A stretch of DNA of 47,593 bases from Candidatus Kapaibacterium sp. (GTDB lineage: Bacteria > Bacteroidota > Ignavibacteria > Kapaibacteriales > UBA4661). The stretch covers positions 1 through 47,593 of the forward strand of contig JANYDO010000359.1 in the NCBI GenBank assembly GCA_025363605.1, in the 5' to 3' direction. Positions within the stretch are counted from its first letter, which is position 1, and the number at the start of each line of letters is the position of its first letter. Positions 1 to 47,258 of the stretch are shown piece by piece. The position numbers were made by a program, and so were the translations under genes. Under the pieces are notes generated by a model that saw only the letters and a program-made list of their open reading frames with translations, did no database searches and was not told the DNA's origin.

Positions 1-534
1 GCGCACGGTGCAAATGCTTCATCCTTTGCCGATTGGTGGGCATACAAAATGGAAGTTGCCGATGCTATCCCATACAATGGCGCAATCCTTAACGCAATGG
101 GACTGAACGTTGCCTTCAACTCCGACGATGCTGAGATGGCGCGTCGCTTGAACCAAGAAGCCGCAAAAGCCGTCAAATACGGCGGCGTACCGGAAGAAGA
201 AGCGCTGAAATTTGTAACACTGAATCCCGCAAAAATGCTCCACGTGGACGCAAAAGTGGGCAGCTTGAAAGTTGGTAAGGATGCAGACGTGGTGCTTTGG
301 TCAGACAATCCGCTTTCCATCTATGCCCGCGCGGAAAAGACATTCGTGGACGGAACGCTCTACTACGACCGCGAACGCGACGCACAAGTCCGTGAGGAAA
401 TCCGCTTGGAACGCGCCCGCTTGACGCAAGCAATGATTCAAGCCAAAAAGGGTGGCGCTCCCACGCAAGCCGCACCGCCGCGCCGCAATTTCGAGAAAGT
501 TCATTGCGACCAACTTGGCGAAGTGGGCTGGTAA
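1..534 (+). CDS. Amidohydrolase family protein, C-terminal part (5'-truncated by the window)
   Basis: Frame is open from base 1 (AHGANASSFADWWAYKMEV...). Motifs FNSDDAEMARRLNQEAAK, VTLNPAKML and GSLKVGKDADVVLW are typical of amidohydrolase C-termini. Confidence 0.85.
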   Translation, partial: AHGANASSFADWWAYKMEVADAIPYNGAILNAMGLNVAFNSDDAEMARRLNQEAAKAVKYGGVPEEEALKFVTLNPAKMLHVDAKVGSLKVGKDADVVLWSDNPLSIYARAEKTFVDGTLYYDRERDAQVREEIRLERARLTQAMIQAKKGGAPTQAAPPRRNFEKVHCDQLGEVGW

Positions 535-562
535 GAATTAATAAAAAAGTATCAAAATTTTG

Positions 563-632
563 GGCTTCGGCAGCACAGACATTCTTGTCTGTGAGATTTA
601 GCGCTCTGTGCTTACCCTGTGCTACTGAAGCC
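563..632. repeat. Intergenic inverted repeat with a REP-like hairpin
   Basis: GGCTTCGGCAGCACAG (563-578) pairs with CTGTGCTACTGAAGCC (617-632) with 2 mismatches; internal hairpin CACAGACA-TTCT-TGTCTGTG. Related sequence at 3975-4019. Confidence 0.6.
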
Positions 633-658
633 AGCAAAATACTTCATCTGTATCAAGG

Positions 659-785
659 TTAGGACTTTTGCAAATCGCATCTGTCATACCGACGTAGGTC
701 GGTATCCATGACGTGTACACGTTGCCGATAGATTCCGACCTGCGTCGGAATGACAGCAAACATGGACAGTTTGCGAAAATCCTAA
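659..785. mobile_element. MITE-like shell (TAGGACTTTYGCAAA ends) enclosing a REP-like doublet
   Basis: TTAGGACTTTTGCAAA (659-674) and TTTGCGAAAATCCTAA (770-785) are inverted with 2 mismatches. The same end family occurs at 47145-47258. Confidence 0.65.
681..756. repeat. REP-like doublet, GTCATnCCGAC family (copy 1)
   Basis: Left arm CTGTCATACCGACGTAGGTCGGTATCCA (681-708); inverted right arm TAGATTCCGACCTGCGTCGGAATGACAG (729-756). Each arm is itself a hairpin. Confidence 0.9.
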
Positions 786-833
786 AGGTCTATTTTGTTG
801 AACAACTTGTTGCACAACGACACGAGGAAAACG

Positions 834-1166
834 TTGAAACTGAAACCCGAAAAACTTCTCGAAGAACTCAAAGCTATTGCCGAAACTATCGGCGTTCAGG
901 TGATTATTGACAAAGGCAATTTTTCTGGTGGACACTGCCTCGTTTACGAGGAGCGCAAAATCGTTTTGAACAAACTCCTGCCACCGGAAGTCAAAGCCGC
1001 CAAGCTCGCACAAAGTCTGACGTTCTATTCGCTGGAAGGCATAGAACTCAAGCCCGCGCTCCGTGATTTTCTGGATAACGAGCGTCTGCGCCTTGCTTCG
1101 CGTACAAAAGATGCTCTGAGTGACGAGGCTCAAGCAGTTGTGAACGACGTTCTGGCAAGCGTGTAG
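834..1166 (+). CDS. Hypothetical protein (about 110 aa)
   Basis: ORF 795-1166. Probable start TTG 834 after GAGG. The sequence LKPEKLLEELKAIAETIGVQVIIDKGNFSGGHCLV looks globular; no function assigned. Confidence 0.7.
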   Translation: MKLKPEKLLEELKAIAETIGVQVIIDKGNFSGGHCLVYEERKIVLNKLLPPEVKAAKLAQSLTFYSLEGIELKPALRDFLDNERLRLASRTKDALSDEAQAVVNDVLASV

Positions 1167-1279
1167 CAGCGTAAGCGTATGAATAGCGTATAACAAGAAC
1201 TCAATCATTGCATAATTTTTTCACTCAACCGTCCTTTCACATTTCAATTCAAAGTTGAATGTAGGACATTACAACAATC

Positions 1280-3802
1280 ATGGCACGAAAACCACCCTCC
1301 CGCATTGCGAAAAAGAAAGCTCCGGCAGCACAAGAGATTGCTTTGCCCGTAGAAAACCTTGCGGCGCAAGATGTTCAGATACAAAGCAATCAGCCCGACG
1401 AACATACGCCGGAGCCGCTTGTAGAGCAGCTGCAAGCTGAAGCGCCCAAAGGTGCAAAACCAAAGACGAGCCCGAAGAATCAAGCTCCTGCTGGTAAGAG
1501 TCAAGCCCCGAATGCCAAAACTCCTCAAGTAGAGAAGCCTTCAGCGGAGAAATTATCAGCAGAGAAACTATCGGCGGAGAAGCCGCTAATGGCTGCTGCA
1601 CCTGTTCAAAAGCCTGCTCCCGTAACAAAACCTGCACCAGCAACGAAGCCCGAACCAAGCGGACAAATACTCCCCTTGCCGCAATTCTTGGCGCAAAAAC
1701 ACGGCTTGCACAACCTTGGGCAAATCTTCATCAATCTTTCTACGCCGGAACTGTATGAACACATCTTGTTCCTGCGCGAAGGCGTTATGTCTGCGCACGG
1801 GGCAGTGATGGTGGAAACGACACCCAACACGAAACTTGCTGTACGCGACAAATTCATCGTGGAGGAAGAGATAAATAAAGAACATATTGCATGGGGCGAG
1901 GCAAATCGAGCTATTGAGCAATCAAAATTTAATGCCCTCAAAGCACGCATCGGAGCGTATTTGCAGAAGCGGAATGTCTATGTCCAAGACTGTTTCGCGG
2001 GTTCGGACACACGTCTCAGAGTACCGTTGCGCGTTGTTACTGAAAATGCGTGGCAGAGTCTTTTTGTCCGCAACACCTTTATTGAAGCGCTTCCGGCAGA
2101 ACTTCGCCAATTCGACCCGCGCATGACGATTATTTCCCTGCCCAACTTCAAAGCTATTCCCGAAATAGACGGCACACGGGCGGAAACATTTGTTCTCTAC
2201 GATTTTTCGCAGCGTCTCGCCATTATCGGCGGCACACGCCATGCAGAAGAAATTAAAAAAGCTGTCTTTACGGTAATGAGCTATGCCATGCCGCTTCGCC
2301 GCGTCTTGCCTATGCGCTGCGCTGCCAGCATTGGTGCAAACGGTGAAACCGTGCTTCTTTTCGGCACGAATGGTGCCGGCAAAACAACTCTTTCGGTGGA
2401 CACCGCGCGAACTCTCATTGGTGACGATGCTCACGGTTGGGGCGATGATGGCGTGTTTGCTTTTGAAGGCGGCGGATATGCCAAAGCGCAAGGAATATTG
2501 CCGGAAACAGAGCCTTCGCTCTATGCGGTATCGCGGACGTTTGGTACGATTCTCGAAAATGTGAAATTCGACACCACGACACGCATTGCGAACCTTGCCG
2601 ATACATCTATCAGCGATAATGCCCGCGTTTCATATTCTCTCGCACAACTTTCTCCGTTGCAGCCGGTCACGCCCAAACTGCGCGGCGCACACCCAAAAAA
2701 TGTCATACTTCTTGTCAACGATGCCTTTGGCGTACTACCGCCCGTAGCGCGGCTGACGCAAGAGCAAGCTGTCTTTTTCTATTTGTCCGGCTATGCTGCA
2801 AAAAATCCCATCGGCGAACCGAAAATCGAGCCGCGATCTGTCTTCAGTGCTGGCTTTGGCGAGACATTCATGGTGCAAGACCCCGTCTCATACGCGAATC
2901 TTTTCCGCGAGCGTCTGCGCCGTAATAATACGAAAGTTTGGCTTGTCAATACGGGATGGCAAGGCGGAACACAGGCAACGGGAAGCCGTATCAAGCGCGA
3001 TTACTCGCGTGCGATTGTGCTCGCGATTACTTCCGGCGCTCTTGATTCGGCGCAGTATAGCATTGATGCGGTGTTTAATCTCAGTGTGCCGTCGGCGTGT
3101 CCGGGTGTACCGGCAGCAATGTTGAATCCGCGTAATGCTTGGGCTGACCGTGCGGTATATGAAAAAACCGCACAAAAGCTCCTCCAACTTCTGACAGAAA
3201 ACTTCAAGAAATATGCAGGACGTGTTGATAAATCTATTGCGCAAGCTCTTGCAGCTCCCGCGCAAACTGCACAAAAACAGAATCCTCCGTCCAATGCACC
3301 TGCGCTTGCAACCGCCGCTGCACCGCAGATAGTAAAATCGGGTGCAAATATGCCACCGGAAATTCTTACACCCGACATTTCGGTAGCTGCATCGCCGGAA
3401 ACTCCCGCAGAAACAGCTTCGGGCAAGAAAATTCCACCCAAAAAAGTCAAACCCGTCAAAAAAGGACGTGGTAAGCAAGTGCTGATAGAAGAAGATGATG
3501 AAGCAGAGGTCGGCGACACAGGTTCGCACGAAACCATAGACGCGCCATACGATAATGACGATGATGCAGGCGCAGATGTCATCATTCCGTCCAGCCTTTT
3601 TGTGAGTGAACCCGAAGGCGAGTTCCGTCCGGATGATGATATGCTAACACCATCTACCTTTGATGATGAAGATGACGACGACATTGCTGATAATGGTGAG
3701 GCGCAAGACGGCAATGACGCTGCCGGAGACGAGCAAGGACAAGCTCAATTCAAGGGTGGTCGCCGCCGCAGAGGTGGTCGTGGTCGTCGTCGCCCGCGAT
3801 GA
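1280..3802 (+). CDS. pckA: ATP-dependent PEP carboxykinase homologue with divergent active site and long low-complexity N- and C-terminal extensions
   Basis: PEPCK motifs LFGTNGAGKTTLS, LIGDDAHGW, FEGGGYAK, DAFGVLPPVARL and VWLVNTGW. Core about 1700-3220. See findings for the catalytic substitutions. Confidence 0.85.
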   Translation: MARKPPSRIAKKKAPAAQEIALPVENLAAQDVQIQSNQPDEHTPEPLVEQLQAEAPKGAKPKTSPKNQAPAGKSQAPNAKTPQVEKPSAEKLSAEKLSAEKPLMAAAPVQKPAPVTKPAPATKPEPSGQILPLPQFLAQKHGLHNLGQIFINLSTPELYEHILFLREGVMSAHGAVMVETTPNTKLAVRDKFIVEEEINKEHIAWGEANRAIEQSKFNALKARIGAYLQKRNVYVQDCFAGSDTRLRVPLRVVTENAWQSLFVRNTFIEALPAELRQFDPRMTIISLPNFKAIPEIDGTRAETFVLYDFSQRLAIIGGTRHAEEIKKAVFTVMSYAMPLRRVLPMRCAASIGANGETVLLFGTNGAGKTTLSVDTARTLIGDDAHGWGDDGVFAFEGGGYAKAQGILPETEPSLYAVSRTFGTILENVKFDTTTRIANLADTSISDNARVSYSLAQLSPLQPVTPKLRGAHPKNVILLVNDAFGVLPPVARLTQEQAVFFYLSGYAAKNPIGEPKIEPRSVFSAGFGETFMVQDPVSYANLFRERLRRNNTKVWLVNTGWQGGTQATGSRIKRDYSRAIVLAITSGALDSAQYSIDAVFNLSVPSACPGVPAAMLNPRNAWADRAVYEKTAQKLLQLLTENFKKYAGRVDKSIAQALAAPAQTAQKQNPPSNAPALATAAAPQIVKSGANMPPEILTPDISVAASPETPAETASGKKIPPKKVKPVKKGRGKQVLIEEDDEAEVGDTGSHETIDAPYDNDDDAGADVIIPSSLFVSEPEGEFRPDDDMLTPSTFDDEDDDDIADNGEAQDGNDAAGDEQGQAQFKGGRRRRGGRGRRRPR
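1531..1586 (+). repeat. In-frame 15-nt tandem repeat (EKPSA/EKLSA, about 4 copies)
   Basis: VEKPSAEKLSAEKLSAEKP in the N-terminal extension. Confidence 0.75.
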
Positions 3803-39706: not shown

Positions 39707-39876
39707 GGTTTTAATTGGATGTAGTTAGAAATCTCTCTTACAAATGCGGGAAACAAGACGCTGTCATACCGACGTAGGTCGGTATCTATATCGAAAGGAC
39801 ACGGCACAACACGCTTCCAATGGATGCCGACCTGCGTCGGCATGACGAGATTTTCCAACTAAAATCATTTAGAACC
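39707..39876. mobile_element. Degenerate outer inverted-repeat shell enclosing REP doublet copy 2
   Basis: GGTTTTAATTGGATGTAGTTAGAAATCTC (39707-39735) imperfectly matches the reverse complement of 39847-39876 (GGTTCTAAATGATTTTAGTTGGAAAATCTC). Confidence 0.5.
39761..39846. repeat. REP-like doublet, GTCATnCCGAC family (copy 2)
   Basis: CTGTCATACCGACGTAGGTCGGTATCTA (39761-39788) and inverted TGGATGCCGACCTGCGTCGGCATGAC (39821-39846). Confidence 0.9.
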
Positions 39877-40847
39877 AAAACGATGATATTGCACGACTTT
39901 TCGGCGGGCTGAATCGTAGCGTGGCGACGATACGCGAGATGCTTGGTCAAATCTTGTTTTCCCTGAGCGATACCGTTCAGACGGCAAGTGAAGTCAGCAC
40001 GACGGCGCACCAAATGGCAGCTGGCACGATTGAGGGCGCAACGCAAGTGCAACAATCCACGGCAGCCGTGCAGCAGATGTCCGACGTTATCGCCGACAAC
40101 ACTCGCCAGACCTCAACCGCAGCCTTTGAAGCCGCCGAAGCGCATGGTGAAGCCGAGCGCGGCGGAAGCGTGATGAAAAATATGGTCGAAAATGTGCGGA
40201 ATATCGGCGCAGTGGTGATGGAATCTTCTTCAACGGTCAGTATTCTCGGTAAACGCAGCGAGGAAATTGGCGAAATCGTTTCGACCATTGACGAAATTGC
40301 CGACCAAACGAATCTTCTCGCCCTGAACGCCGCTATTGAAGCTGCTCGTGCGGGCGATGCCGGACGCGGCTTTGCTGTTGTTGCCGATGAAGTCCGCAAG
40401 CTCGCCGAACGCACTCAAAAAGCAACAAAAGAAATCTCCGGCATGATAGCCGTGATACAGCACGAAATGGGCGATGCCGTCCGCGCTATGGCGCGCGGTA
40501 AGCAACTTGTGGACGAAAGCGGCTCGCTGATTACCGCTACGACAGGCACATTTGAAACGATTGTTCGCAAAACCGCCCACGTATCGGACATTATGTCGCA
40601 AGTGGCAAGTGCCAGCGAGGAGCAAGCTGCCACGAGTACGCAGATTGCGGGCAATATGCAGAATATAGCCGGTCTTATTAGCGAAACCAGCACAGGCACG
40701 AACCAAATTGCAGCGACTATTGAAGCCCTCGCCTCGCAAACAATGGATGTGCAGACGCTCGTAGGGCGCTTCCGCATTGATACACTCGCACAGCAATTTG
40801 CACACACTCGCACAGCATTGCCACAAAGCCCCAAACGCTTACGTTAG
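39873..40847 (+). pseudogene. 5'-truncated methyl-accepting chemotaxis protein (half HAMP plus signalling domain)
   Basis: [38 protein letters not shown] hairpin tip. Upstream of GTG 39921 the frame reads [16 protein letters not shown] (second HAMP helix) back to TAG at 39870. No sensor or TM region. Confidence 0.8.
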
Positions 40848-40908
40848 AACTGGTGCGCAGTACAAGAATTTACCATTCAACCTTCAACACTCAATATCTT
40901 CTTCCGTC

Positions 40909-42168
40909 ATGTCCTTTGCACTCATTTTCCAAATCGCCAAAACGCATCTTCTTTCCAAGAAGAAGCAAACCATTACCGCCATGCTTGGCGTTACCTTCGG
41001 TATCGGGATGTTTGTCCTGATGATTAGCGTGATGACGGGCGTGAACGACTATCTCACCGATTCCATGCTCGAATCCACCGCGCATATTCGGATGTACAAC
41101 GACCTCGAATCGTCCTCGCGTCTTTCGATTGCCGAGGAACTCTTCAACGCCGTGCAGAATATGGTAACGATTGCGCATCAAAAGCCAAAAAATATTAAGC
41201 TCAATATTCGCAATGGAATGCAAATCGTGGAGGCACTCAAAAACGACCCGAATGTCGCCGGAGTCTCACCGCAGCTGAGTTCGCAGGTTTTTTACAACTA
41301 CGGAGCGGTGCAATTAAACGGCAGTATAGCGGGTGTGAATATTTTGGACGAAGATAAACTCTTCGATGTGACGGGAAAACTAAAATCCGGCAAGCTGGAA
41401 AGCCTTTTAGCGACGAATAACGGTATCATTATGGGTGCGGGACTCGCAAAAAAACTTAATGCAAAAGTAGAAGACCGCGTACAAGTAACTACGCCCTTCG
41501 GAACAACGATGACACTCAAAATTGTGGGGACATTTGCCACAGGAAACGGCGTGATAGACAACGTAAAAAGTTATGCCAGCATTACAACAGTCCAGAAAAT
41601 CTTGCAACGCGACCCGGGCTATATCACCGCCATTAGTGTTAATCTTCATTCCATGACCGATGCCAAGCGCTTTGCACCGGAGTTTCAGGCGAAATATGGC
41701 GTGAAGTCCGAAGACTGGGAAACTGCCAATGCCGTGATTTTGCAAAGTTTTGTGATTCGCAATTTGATGACATATGTGGTCGTAACGACGCTCTTGGTTG
41801 TTGCCGGGTTCGGTATTTACAACATTATGAGCATGACCATCAACGACAAAATGAAAGATATTGCGATTCTGAAAGCAACGGGCTTTTCGGCGGGTGATAT
41901 TGTAGCGATTTTTCTTGTACAAGCTATTGTTGTTGGTGTCTTGGGGGCATCGCTGGGGCTGTGCATCGGCGGCACGCTTGCATATTTTGTGTCACAGATT
42001 CCGGTGGATTTCGGCGAATTTTCCTCCATGACGCGCTTTCCGGTAGCTTTCCATCTGATTCATTACGTTTCGGGCATCCTCTTCGGGGTTGGCGCGACGT
42101 GTCTTGCGGGCTTTTTGCCTTCGCGTAAGGCTGGGAAGATTGATCCGGTGCAGATTATTCGCGGTTGA
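40909..42168 (+). CDS. ABC transporter permease (MacB/FtsX/LolC-E type)
   Basis: N-terminal TM, periplasmic domain and three C-terminal TMs; DIAILKATGF and PSRKAGKIDPVQIIRG. Confidence 0.92.
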   Translation: MSFALIFQIAKTHLLSKKKQTITAMLGVTFGIGMFVLMISVMTGVNDYLTDSMLESTAHIRMYNDLESSSRLSIAEELFNAVQNMVTIAHQKPKNIKLNIRNGMQIVEALKNDPNVAGVSPQLSSQVFYNYGAVQLNGSIAGVNILDEDKLFDVTGKLKSGKLESLLATNNGIIMGAGLAKKLNAKVEDRVQVTTPFGTTMTLKIVGTFATGNGVIDNVKSYASITTVQKILQRDPGYITAISVNLHSMTDAKRFAPEFQAKYGVKSEDWETANAVILQSFVIRNLMTYVVVTTLLVVAGFGIYNIMSMTINDKMKDIAILKATGFSAGDIVAIFLVQAIVVGVLGASLGLCIGGTLAYFVSQIPVDFGEFSSMTRFPVAFHLIHYVSGILFGVGATCLAGFLPSRKAGKIDPVQIIRG

Positions 42169-42179
42169 AATGAGTACCA

Positions 42180-42634
42180 CTTGTCATGCCGACGCAGGTC
42201 GGCATCCATATCGCCTACGAGCGTTCATCCCAAAATCAATATAATCATTCCCATCAACCAATGAAAACCTACCACATCTACATTCTCGCTAGCGCAAAAT
42301 ACGGTACGCTGTACATTGGCTCGACGAGCAATCTTGTCAAAAGGATGTATGAACATAGCAATTCGCTTATTGAGGGTTTTACGAAAAAGTATCGTGTTCA
42401 CAACCTTGTTTGGTATGAATCCACAAACGATGCTACAACTATGGTTACAAGAGAGCGTCAGATGAAAGAGTGGAAGCGCGATTGGAAAATAAACCGTATC
42501 AATGAACATAACCCGGAATGGCAAAATTTGTATGAAAATGGCGAAATTTCGCCCTTACAGATTCCATAATCAAAGGCAGACATCGAGAAACGGATTCTTG
42601 CGATATGGATGCCGACCTACGTCGGTATGACAAG
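42180..42634. mobile_element. GIY-YIG nuclease cassette bounded by 35-bp inverted hairpin repeats
   Basis: CTTGTCATGCCGACGCAGGTCGGCATCCATATCGC (42180-42214) and GCGATATGGATGCCGACCTACGTCGGTATGACAAG (42600-42634), 33/35 identical. Sits between the ABC permease and ATPase genes. Confidence 0.8.
42261..42569 (+). CDS. Stand-alone GIY-YIG nuclease (102 aa)
   Basis: HIYILAS...TLYIGSTSNLVKRMYEH...FTKKY...LVWYE...RERQMKEWKRDWKINRINEHNPEW; catalytic Tyr, Arg and Glu appear present. Confidence 0.92.
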   Translation: MKTYHIYILASAKYGTLYIGSTSNLVKRMYEHSNSLIEGFTKKYRVHNLVWYESTNDATTMVTRERQMKEWKRDWKINRINEHNPEWQNLYENGEISPLQIP

Positions 42635-42702: not shown

Positions 42703-43389
42703 ATGACTACTCCTGTTCTCCAAGCCCAAGGCATCGTCAAATACTTCCACGAACCGGAAACATTTGCGGTTCTCAAAAACGTCTCATTCGAGGTACAGAA
42801 AGGTGAATTTGTCTCTATTGTCGGCAAGTCCGGCTGCGGGAAATCCACACTCTTGTACGTCCTCTCCACGATGGACACTGACTTCGAGGGCGAACTAACA
42901 CTCAACGGCACAACCATTCACGGTAAATCACAAGACGAACTGGCACGGTTTCGTGGCGAACACATCGGTTTTGTCTTCCAGTTTCACTACCTTTTGCCGG
43001 AATTTACTTGCCTTCAAAACGTGATGATACCTGCGCTCAAGCTCGGTAAATACTCACGCGAAGAAATTCAAGAGCGGGCAATGGAAAAACTTCGCCTACT
43101 CGGAGTGGCCGAGCAAGCGGACAAACGCGCCAGCAAACTCTCCGGCGGGCAGCAGCAGCGCGTGGCAATCGCGAGAGCGCTTATCAACGACCCTACGATA
43201 ATCATGGGTGACGAGCCGACGGGGAATCTGGACTCAAATAACTCTAAAGTTGTGTTCGATATTTTCAGAGACTTAGCTCACACCTACGGTCAAACCTTGA
43301 TTTGCGTCACGCACGACCAAGAATTTGCCCGCGCCACCGACCGAACGATTGAGATGCAAGACGGCGAAATTATTTCGCACGGTAACTAA
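42703..43389 (+). CDS. ABC transporter ATP-binding protein (LolD/MacB-like)
   Basis: GKSGCGKST, GFVFQFHYLL, LSGGQQQRV, DEPTGNLD and VTHD. Confidence 0.95.
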   Translation: MTTPVLQAQGIVKYFHEPETFAVLKNVSFEVQKGEFVSIVGKSGCGKSTLLYVLSTMDTDFEGELTLNGTTIHGKSQDELARFRGEHIGFVFQFHYLLPEFTCLQNVMIPALKLGKYSREEIQERAMEKLRLLGVAEQADKRASKLSGGQQQRVAIARALINDPTIIMGDEPTGNLDSNNSKVVFDIFRDLAHTYGQTLICVTHDQEFARATDRTIEMQDGEIISHGN

Positions 43390-47144: not shown

Positions 47145-47258
47145 TAGGACTTTCGCAAACAAGCTGGAGTGCGAACGGGAGTTCGCATAACTACTGCCTT
47201 CGCCTTGTCAACCGAACTTCCGTTCGGACTCCAAAAGAGTATCTTTGCGAAAGTCCTA
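47145..47258. mobile_element. MITE-like shell (perfect 15-bp IR) enclosing a GGAGTGCGAAC hairpin doublet
   Basis: TAGGACTTTCGCAAA (47145-47159) and TTTGCGAAAGTCCTA (47244-47258). Inner arms TGGAGTGCGAACGGGAGTTCG (47165-47185) and CGAACTTCCGTTCGGACTCCA (47213-47233). Confidence 0.75.

Follow-up and report, generated by a model that had tools for sequence, protein, structure and literature searches.

Covarying hairpin doublets of a Kapaibacterium genome as probable repeats of an Ssn-like nuclease carried by MITEs

Repetitive extragenic palindromic (REP) sequences tagged with CGTC or TGTC have been described as 8-9-bp stems that begin with AT, have loops of 4-5 nt and CCA tails and mostly form inverted dimers, including so-called heterodimers whose units differ in stem or loop, and these CGTC REPs were concluded to lack a dedicated transposase (Di Nocera 2013, PMC3733652). 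The same source reports dimers nested in longer palindromes for all CGTC-1 REPs of Halothiobacillus neapolitanus and many GTAG-15 REPs of Anabaena variabilis (PMC3733652). The NTS hairpins of Neisseria and related SRM hairpins, in turn, flank genes of single-domain GIY-YIG proteins of the Ssn family, typically in the layout NTS-ssnA-NTS; each Ssn homolog prefers its own hairpin, and the proteins bind and cut single-stranded DNA (ssDNA) adjoining it, not double-stranded DNA or RNA (Chenal 2025, PMC11893778). Here, we analyze a stretch of 47,593 nucleotides from Candidatus Kapaibacterium sp. (contig JANYDO010000359.1, in full length "the window"; contig C401 of genome G000, an assembly of 5.30 Mb in 567 contigs) that contains three inverted pairs of hairpin arms, one of which encloses a nuclease gene. 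We consider it probable (roughly 0.8) that these arms are the lineage's own CGTC/TGTC-tagged REP, i.e., the NTS/SRM counterpart, of an Ssn-family nuclease encoded at 42261-42569, and that the doublets have spread as cargo of two MITE families (miniature inverted-repeat transposable elements).

The window arms resemble CGTC-1 REPs (Di Nocera 2013) in having the 8-bp stem starting with AT and the 4-nt loop by which that class is recognized, and further in their tag, CCA tail, arrangement as inverted heterodimers and conserved spacer. As in some of the dimer families described there, the dimers are nested in longer outer palindromes.

Hairpin arms and the nuclease gene they flank

All six arms that a first-pass annotation had noted from the letters alone are found in the window, where they share the core (T/C)GTC-AT-N-CCGAC-G(T/C)AG-GTCGG-N'-AT-C(C/T)A. 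The tag is present in every arm (TGTC in five, CGTC in one), and the tail reads CCA in four and CTA in two. The arms, called SRM arms below, and the gene are as follows:

682..708, plus strand: SRM or TGTC-tagged REP arm of A-T type with a GTAG loop (694-697); the tag is at 682-685, the stem pairs 686-693 to 698-705, and the CCA tail is at 706-708
729..755, minus strand: SRM arm of T-A type with a GCAG loop and a CTA tail; forms a heterodimer with the 682 arm, a 24-nt spacer separating their 24-nt cores
39762..39788, plus strand: SRM arm of the second doublet, A-T type, GTAG loop
39821..39847, minus strand: SRM arm of the second doublet, G-C type, GCAG loop, CGTC tag
42182..42208, plus strand: SRM arm on the left of the ssn cassette, of G-C type with a GCAG loop; within a 35-nt inverted repeat (42180-42214)
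42261..42569, plus strand: ssn-like gene for a GIY-YIG nuclease of 102 aa with a single domain; its neighbors are an FtsX-type permease gene at 40777-42168 and, on the other side, an ABC ATPase gene at 42703-43389
42606..42632, minus strand: SRM arm on the right of the ssn cassette, of mixed type (A facing C) with a GTAG loop; within the inverted repeat 42600-42634, predicted to form a 5-bp hairpin only

As the annotation had it, one stem pair (N/N') co-varies, being A-T at 682 and 39762, T-A at 729 and G-C at 39821 and 42182, and only the rightmost arm (42606-42632) is mixed with A/C. The 14-nt core pattern gave nine strand matches at these six sites compared to a mean of 0.41 and a maximum of 3 in shuffled sequence, with none of 100 shuffles reaching nine. 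Single arms are predicted to fold as DNA into 8 bp with a 4-nt loop at -7.3 to -9.0 kcal/mol (z about -4). No Rfam family was found for window positions 600-850 at E-values up to 10; the best match was a microRNA-like family with 20.8 bits against a gathering score of 90.

In the ssn cassette, the arms at 42182-42208(+) and 42606-42632(-) flank the gene on both sides with their tags pointing outward, so that the SRM hallmark of 20-50-nt hairpin repeats on both sides of an ssn homolog is present. The 102-aa product compares to the ~94 aa given for single-domain GIY-YIG Ssn proteins; it matches PF01541 (GIY-YIG) over residues 4-78 with 52.5 bits and no other Pfam family. No other small GIY-YIG gene was found in the genome, where PF01541 has two further matches, in frames of 615 and 694 aa. 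We detected 496 homologs of about 95 aa with 52-75% identity in many phyla, of which the best named one comes from a metagenome-assembled genome of Candidatus Kapabacteria (75%) and most others range at 52-65%. A 21-sequence alignment has the invariant catalytic-type residues Y7, Y18, R28, H32, E65 and N84. Homologs from Bradyrhizobium (L035 and L065) are 49-54% identical, and this genus is listed as ssnA-positive in Supplementary Data 4 of Chenal 2025 (PMC11893778). A search of solved structures returned no Ssn structure, with a UPF0213 protein as best match (E 7e-4).

For the association of hairpin and nuclease across phyla, 80 homolog loci were fetched from reference genomes and scanned for tagged hairpins. 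Such a hairpin lies within 300 bp in 77 of them, and the arms of the window go with the nuclease gene that the third pair encloses. A plus-strand arm stands upstream in 64 of the 80 loci and a minus-strand arm downstream in 59; 47 have tag-outward arms on both sides, and five the reverse arrangement on both sides. The real loci hold 194 arms versus 3 in 400 shuffles. Their outer part (GTCAT..ATCCA) is constant, the inner stem is variable (CGC, TGC, GGC, AGC or GAC, besides long-loop forms in Bradyrhizobium), and loop position 2 is free in other taxa.

To avoid circularity, arms for covariation analysis were chosen by tag, the first two stem bases and tail only, with a fixed 8+4+8 geometry. This yielded 109 matches, 69 of them distinct, versus 5 matches in 800 shuffles, and all six inner pairs are formed in 61 of the distinct arms. 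Together with the six window arms they form a set of 75 distinct rows and 600 stem cells, in which 98.7% of the cells are paired versus 82.9% in shuffles, while slid controls pair at 21-47%. Cells changed on both sides number 87 compared to 17.3 +/- 3.6 in shuffles (0/500 reach 87), double changes occur at five of the eight stem pairs, and the N/N' position shows all four Watson-Crick pairs (U-A 48, C-G 9, G-C 8, A-U 7). Because this cross-phylum covariation goes far beyond the shuffles, the hairpin structure is under selection, as the first-pass annotation had suspected. The selected form is likelier ssDNA than RNA because the characterized relatives act on ssDNA hairpins only and because G-U cells are rare (3/600), i.e., not commoner than other mismatches (8).

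The putative cognate enzyme would thus be encoded at 42261-42569, bracketed by two tag-outward arms. By homology, it would read the 8-bp, 4-nt-loop ssDNA hairpin together with its unpaired tag and cut ssDNA beside the folded arm, and a change in the stem would survive only with a change of the partner base because the enzyme presumably reads the paired hairpin. Candidate roles of Ssn at these sites are to limit incoming or exposed ssDNA, or recombination.

Gene-less doublets inside two MITE families

Genome-wide, 144 arms were found with up to two mismatches, and 138 of them lie within 69 convergent doublets, i.e., inverted dimers, leaving six singles. Their N/N' pair is A-T in 72, G-C in 36, T-A in 34 and mixed in two. 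All eight Watson-Crick pairs are formed in 123 arms, seven in 20 and six in one, so that 21 of the 144 arms show recent single stem changes that are uncompensated. The within-genome covariation comes down to about two old compensated events that were copied many times by MITE transposition, because ssn of a sister species is already flanked by all three of these arm types.

The doublets sort into two families, F1 and F2, and within each of them conservation includes the spacer and reaches about 25-50 bp beyond the arms. The earlier view of unrelated spacers is therefore right between families and wrong within them. The combination of one GTAG and one GCAG loop per pair, likewise taken from all three pairs of the window where it holds, is found genome-wide in 44 of 69 doublets (29/34 in F1, 14/34 in F2) and is hence no general rule. 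Terminal inverted repeats (TIRs) of type TIR1 or TIR2 lie beside 64 of the 69 doublets; of the other five, four have no recognizable TIR and one is the nuclease cassette. The window contains one member of each family:

660..784, no strand: F1 MITE (125 bp) with the first doublet; TIR1 ends TAGGACTTTTGCAAA / TTTGCGAAAATCCTA; target-site duplication (TSD) AAGGT at 655-659 and 785-789
39707..39876, no strand: F2 MITE (170 bp) with the second doublet; its 25-bp ends are the TIRs of an ISL3-family insertion sequence (IS) on contig C230; the TSD is gone at this copy

F1 (34 doublets, mean pairwise identity 0.889) joins an A-T arm and a T-A arm over a 24-nt spacer at the center of an element of 125 bp whose ends read TAGGACTTTCGCAAA / TTTGCGAAAGTCCTA and which has a 15-bp TIR (TIR1) and no coding capacity. 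Of 30 testable SRM-carrying copies, 27 have a perfect 5-bp TSD and two more have one with a single mismatch, compared to 5 perfect cases in 1921 mismatched controls. The whole element is predicted to fold into one long bulged DNA hairpin (-33.1 kcal/mol, z -7.6). We had considered that the differences between arms prevent the doublet from folding into a single long hairpin and rejected this idea, since just such a hairpin is the minimum-energy DNA fold of F1.

F2 (34 doublets, mean pairwise identity 0.824) joins a G-C arm and an A-T arm over about 35-37 nt in the core of an element of ~170 bp that has ends of 25 bp and an 8-bp TSD. The same 25-bp TIRs form the ends of an IS of 1175 bp on C230, whose transposase is of the ISL3 family (PF01610, 143.7 bits; NF033550, 221.5 bits against a cut-off of 180). 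Homology between this IS and F2 ends after the 25-bp TIR, and the interior of F2 is not IS-derived.

Thus, where the first-pass annotation had proposed non-autonomous REPIN-like units, i.e., REP doublets of the kind mobilized by a REP-associated tyrosine transposase (RAYT), the doublets spread as MITEs and not as REPINs. Because of TIRs and fixed-length TSDs, the whole composite would have moved by DDE-type transposition, and the ~68 gene-less doublet copies may thus have arisen by transposition of entire MITEs with DDE transposases acting in trans; the ISL3 IS on C230 is the candidate mover of F2, and no transposase was found for F1. A RAYT gene does exist in the genome (C153:43-582; 179 aa; NF047646, 95 bits against a cut-off of 80). 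It is flanked by GGAGTGCGAAC..GTTCGC hairpins at 7-27 and 600-620 and not by SRM arms, so that both its different hairpin and the TIRs and TSDs of the insertions set the doublets apart from REPIN/RAYT systems. The stop codon of the RAYT gene overlaps the start of a TolC-like gene, and contig C153 begins 42 nt upstream of the RAYT gene.

At window 47145-47258, a 114-bp MITE with the TIR1 ends of F1, flanked by ACCAT/GCCAT, has as its core a doublet of the RAYT-flanking hairpin (GGAGT-G-CGAAC-GGGA-GTTCG-C and GGAGT-C-CGAAC-GGAA-GTTCG-G), whose two arms are set apart by a compensated change in the outer pair. Of the 39 genomic copies of this hairpin, 15 lie inside TIR1 MITEs. At window 575-592, the minus strand has one member of a third hairpin family (ACAGACAAGAGTGTCTGT, then GCTAC/GCCAC), which reads as a GTAG-tagged REP on the other strand. 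With 223 copies (up to two mismatches), mostly in doublets and 22 of them near TIR1 ends, this family is more abundant than the other hairpins.

A MITE with ISL3-type ends at C413:1932-2103 has as its core a doublet of canonical CGC-type SRM arms, one of them long-looped; the same ISL3-type chassis hence carries two SRM types (GAC and CGC). About 10 canonical TGTCAT(T/A)CCCGC arms are present in the genome, yet only one ssn gene was found. Across the genus, TIR1 ends occur in 9/9 genomes with 2 to 104 matches each, and in the sister species G005 one TIR1 MITE carries SRM arms and is flanked by a 5-bp duplication; the MITE chassis thus predates, and extends beyond, the burst of SRM copies seen here. 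A candidate for a full-length TIR1 element in that genome (C78:145150-146109) was rejected since its open reading frame (ORF) is response-regulator-like and does not encode a transposase.

Among public sequencing runs, two contain 99% of the words drawn from window 100-1500 and are possibly the source sample, and two more from the same study contain 28%. Their contigs break at MITEs, and one contig spans the ssn cassette unchanged. At window 40286-40435 and 43060-43363, the summed contig depth reaches up to ~1450 versus ~8 elsewhere, with many variant letters; these are probably conserved gene parts common to other organisms in the samples.

History of the cassette and alternative explanations

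To follow the cassette within the genus, this genome was compared with eight genomes of other species:

G000 (this genome): 137 GAC-type arms; ssn present
G005: 15 GAC-type arms; ssn 82% identical
G003: 11 GAC-type arms; ssn not found; genome 86% complete
G008: 4 GAC-type arms; ssn 75% identical
G001: 1 GAC-type arm; ssn not found
G006: 1 GAC-type arm; ssn not found
G002, G004 and G007: no GAC-type arms; G004 with a 54% identical ssn elsewhere

In G005 and G008, ssn is located at the same permease/ATPase junction as in the window, and in G005 it sits between doublet arrays, one of them F1-like with degenerate ends. Enzyme and hairpin co-vary across the genus: ssn genes of 75-100% identity go with GAC-type arms, and the 54% identical gene of G004, at another locus, is flanked by canonical CGC-type arms. 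The closest relatives are G007 and G004, with 94% and 91% nucleotide identity of the permease gene. Their junction is ~85 bp long, and all that is left of the left inverted repeat is its initial 14 nt, CACTTGTCATGCCG, after which the sequence resumes ~17 nt beyond the right arm of the window. We read this as a loss of the cassette by deletion, so that the cassette is an old resident and not a recent arrival. At the same junction in G001 (L102), ~700 bp with an unrelated membrane-protein-like ORF stand in place of ssn.

Several observations weigh against reading the arms as hairpins of this nuclease that spread with MITEs. The published SRM search string, HGTCWYN(0-2)YYVSBRHN(0-5)WNVSBRGN(0-2)RNCYNB (Chenal 2025), is matched by none of the six window arms because the middle position of their inner-stem triplet is A/T and the string requires G/C there; the genome as a whole has 20 matches, or 171 with the two S positions relaxed, and 49 of 79 other homolog loci contain a match. 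The right cassette arm is imperfect, with 5 bp left at -5.2 kcal/mol in the DNA folding prediction. Genome G003 has 11 GAC-type arms and no ssn was found in it, at 86% completeness. Regarding the MITEs, we found no autonomous element bounded by TIR1 in this assembly, only five of 13 complete F2 copies keep a perfect TSD (the window copy being none of them), and the contigs of the public runs, which break at the MITEs, show no empty-site alleles, i.e., no joint that skips a MITE. Finally, spread by MITEs leaves the first entry of doublets between MITE ends unexplained.

This entry is one ground for an alternative in which the doublets are REPIN-like units that Ssn itself mobilizes by acting on its flanking hairpins as a RAYT would. 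Every doublet has the same arms as the ssn flanks, four of the 69 have no recognizable TIR, and finding the same doublet type in two unrelated MITE chassis, along with the CGC-type doublet on C413, requires some route into MITEs. The hairpin-gene-hairpin layout is also IS-like, and an analogy with IS200/IS605 and with REPs and bacterial interspersed mosaic elements has been raised (Chenal 2025, PMC11893778). We nevertheless regard mobilization by Ssn as very unlikely, given TIRs at 64 of 69 doublets and a TSD length that is fixed per family (5 or 8 bp). Hairpin-directed ssDNA transposition as in IS200/IS605 leaves no TSD. Moreover, ssn is single-copy and syntenic in three species, and we know of no strand-transfer activity of single-domain GIY-YIG enzymes. 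The hairpins could instead be selected as RNA elements such as terminators, mRNA stabilizers or processing sites, with an incidental link to the nuclease. The window MITEs lie between co-directional genes and are probably transcribed, the long hairpin predicted for the whole of F1 would fit such a role, and many REPs have been argued to act as RNA (Di Nocera 2013, PMC3733652). Yet no U-tract follows the arms, G-U cells are as rare as noted above, and tagged hairpins accompany ssn in nearly all homolog loci, where tag, tail and orientation are conserved alongside a gene whose characterized relatives, as described, do not touch RNA. A function in RNA is thus improbable as the selected property, though one may have been added as a side effect of transcribed MITEs.

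A last alternative holds that the compensated stem differences are mechanical and not selected, i.e., that they stem from intrastrand template switching or gene conversion between arms. Palindromes are substrates for template-switch mutation, the mixed 42606 arm resembles an A-type half joined to a G-type half, and the arms with fewer than eight pairs imply that purifying selection on individual copies is weak. Across phyla, however, stem length, loop length and pairing stay intact although both sides have changed at five of the eight pairs, and the hairpin type tracks the nuclease clade; template switching would also not preserve the unpaired tag and tail, which are invariant. We give this explanation a slim chance overall, though template switching may contribute to individual compensations. 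Selection on a nuclease-recognized hairpin that is copied by MITEs hence remains our preferred reading.

As to how the doublets entered their MITEs, a tentative answer, and a less likely than even one, is that hairpin doublets of ssDNA enzymes were repeatedly captured in the centers of DDE-type MITEs and then amplified. It is supported by the TIR1 chassis carrying Ssn-type, RAYT-type (window 47145-47258) and GTAG-REP doublets as well as by the unrelated ISL3-type chassis with GAC-type and canonical CGC-type Ssn doublets. If true, repeated capture would explain the high copy number of "orphan" CGTC REPs without a transposase of their own, the outer palindromes around REP dimers elsewhere would be transposon ends instead of insertion targets, and MITE centers, extruded as the tips of ssDNA hairpins, might be the entry points of doublets.

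Comparison with known systems

The covarying hairpins would be a regular part of the Ssn/SRM (CGTC REP) system known from publications of 2013 and 2025, and three aspects are modestly new. The GAC-stem variant is overlooked by the published SRM string, so that counts of SRM-bearing genomes made with it are underestimates; two Ssn/hairpin specificities (GAC and CGC) in one genus form a natural pair for specificity studies; and the hairpin pairs spread as cargo of two unrelated MITE families. The burst of copies (137 arms versus 0-15 in sister species) would be due to MITE transposition, a concrete route for the spread of repeats without a transposase. Our literature searches found nothing on REPs inside MITEs except Di Nocera 2013, and among work from 2025 only Chenal 2025 joins SsnA with GIY-YIG.

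Compared to the REPs described in Di Nocera 2013, for which no dedicated enzyme was found and outer palindromes were seen as insertion targets, the outer palindromes here are transposon ends with TSDs, and unlike in the set presented there, the F2 ends also bound an ISL3 IS in the same genome. The doublets share with bacterial IS-end MITEs (Correia/NEMIS, RUP or ISL3-related elements) a size of 125-170 bp, the lack of coding capacity, 15-25-bp TIRs, a fixed TSD, intergenic positions and dozens of copies, but their interior is not IS-derived and has a pair of nuclease-recognition hairpins as its core. With REP/REPIN-RAYT systems they have in common short hairpins in inverted doublets and a single-copy enzyme gene flanked by the same hairpins, while the enzyme is a GIY-YIG nuclease instead of an HUH/Y1 transposase and the doublets come with TIRs and TSDs.

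The closest match is the Ssn/NTS system of Neisseria meningitidis as presented in Chenal 2025, in which a GIY-YIG protein of ~95-100 aa is likewise encoded between inverted tagged hairpins that are also scattered genome-wide. The core is (C/T)GTCAT-stem-loop-stem-ATCCA here and CGTCATTCCCGCGMAVGCGGGAATCYRG in the Neisseria NTS, and enzyme and hairpin variants co-vary in both. Different from the Ssn systems described there, the inner stem is GAC/GTC instead of CGC/GCG, and the gene-less copies lie nearly all inside MITEs. Its host belongs to a Kapabacteria/Ignavibacteria-like lineage that is barely covered in that study, i.e., by one Ignavibacterium genome in its Supplementary Data 4.

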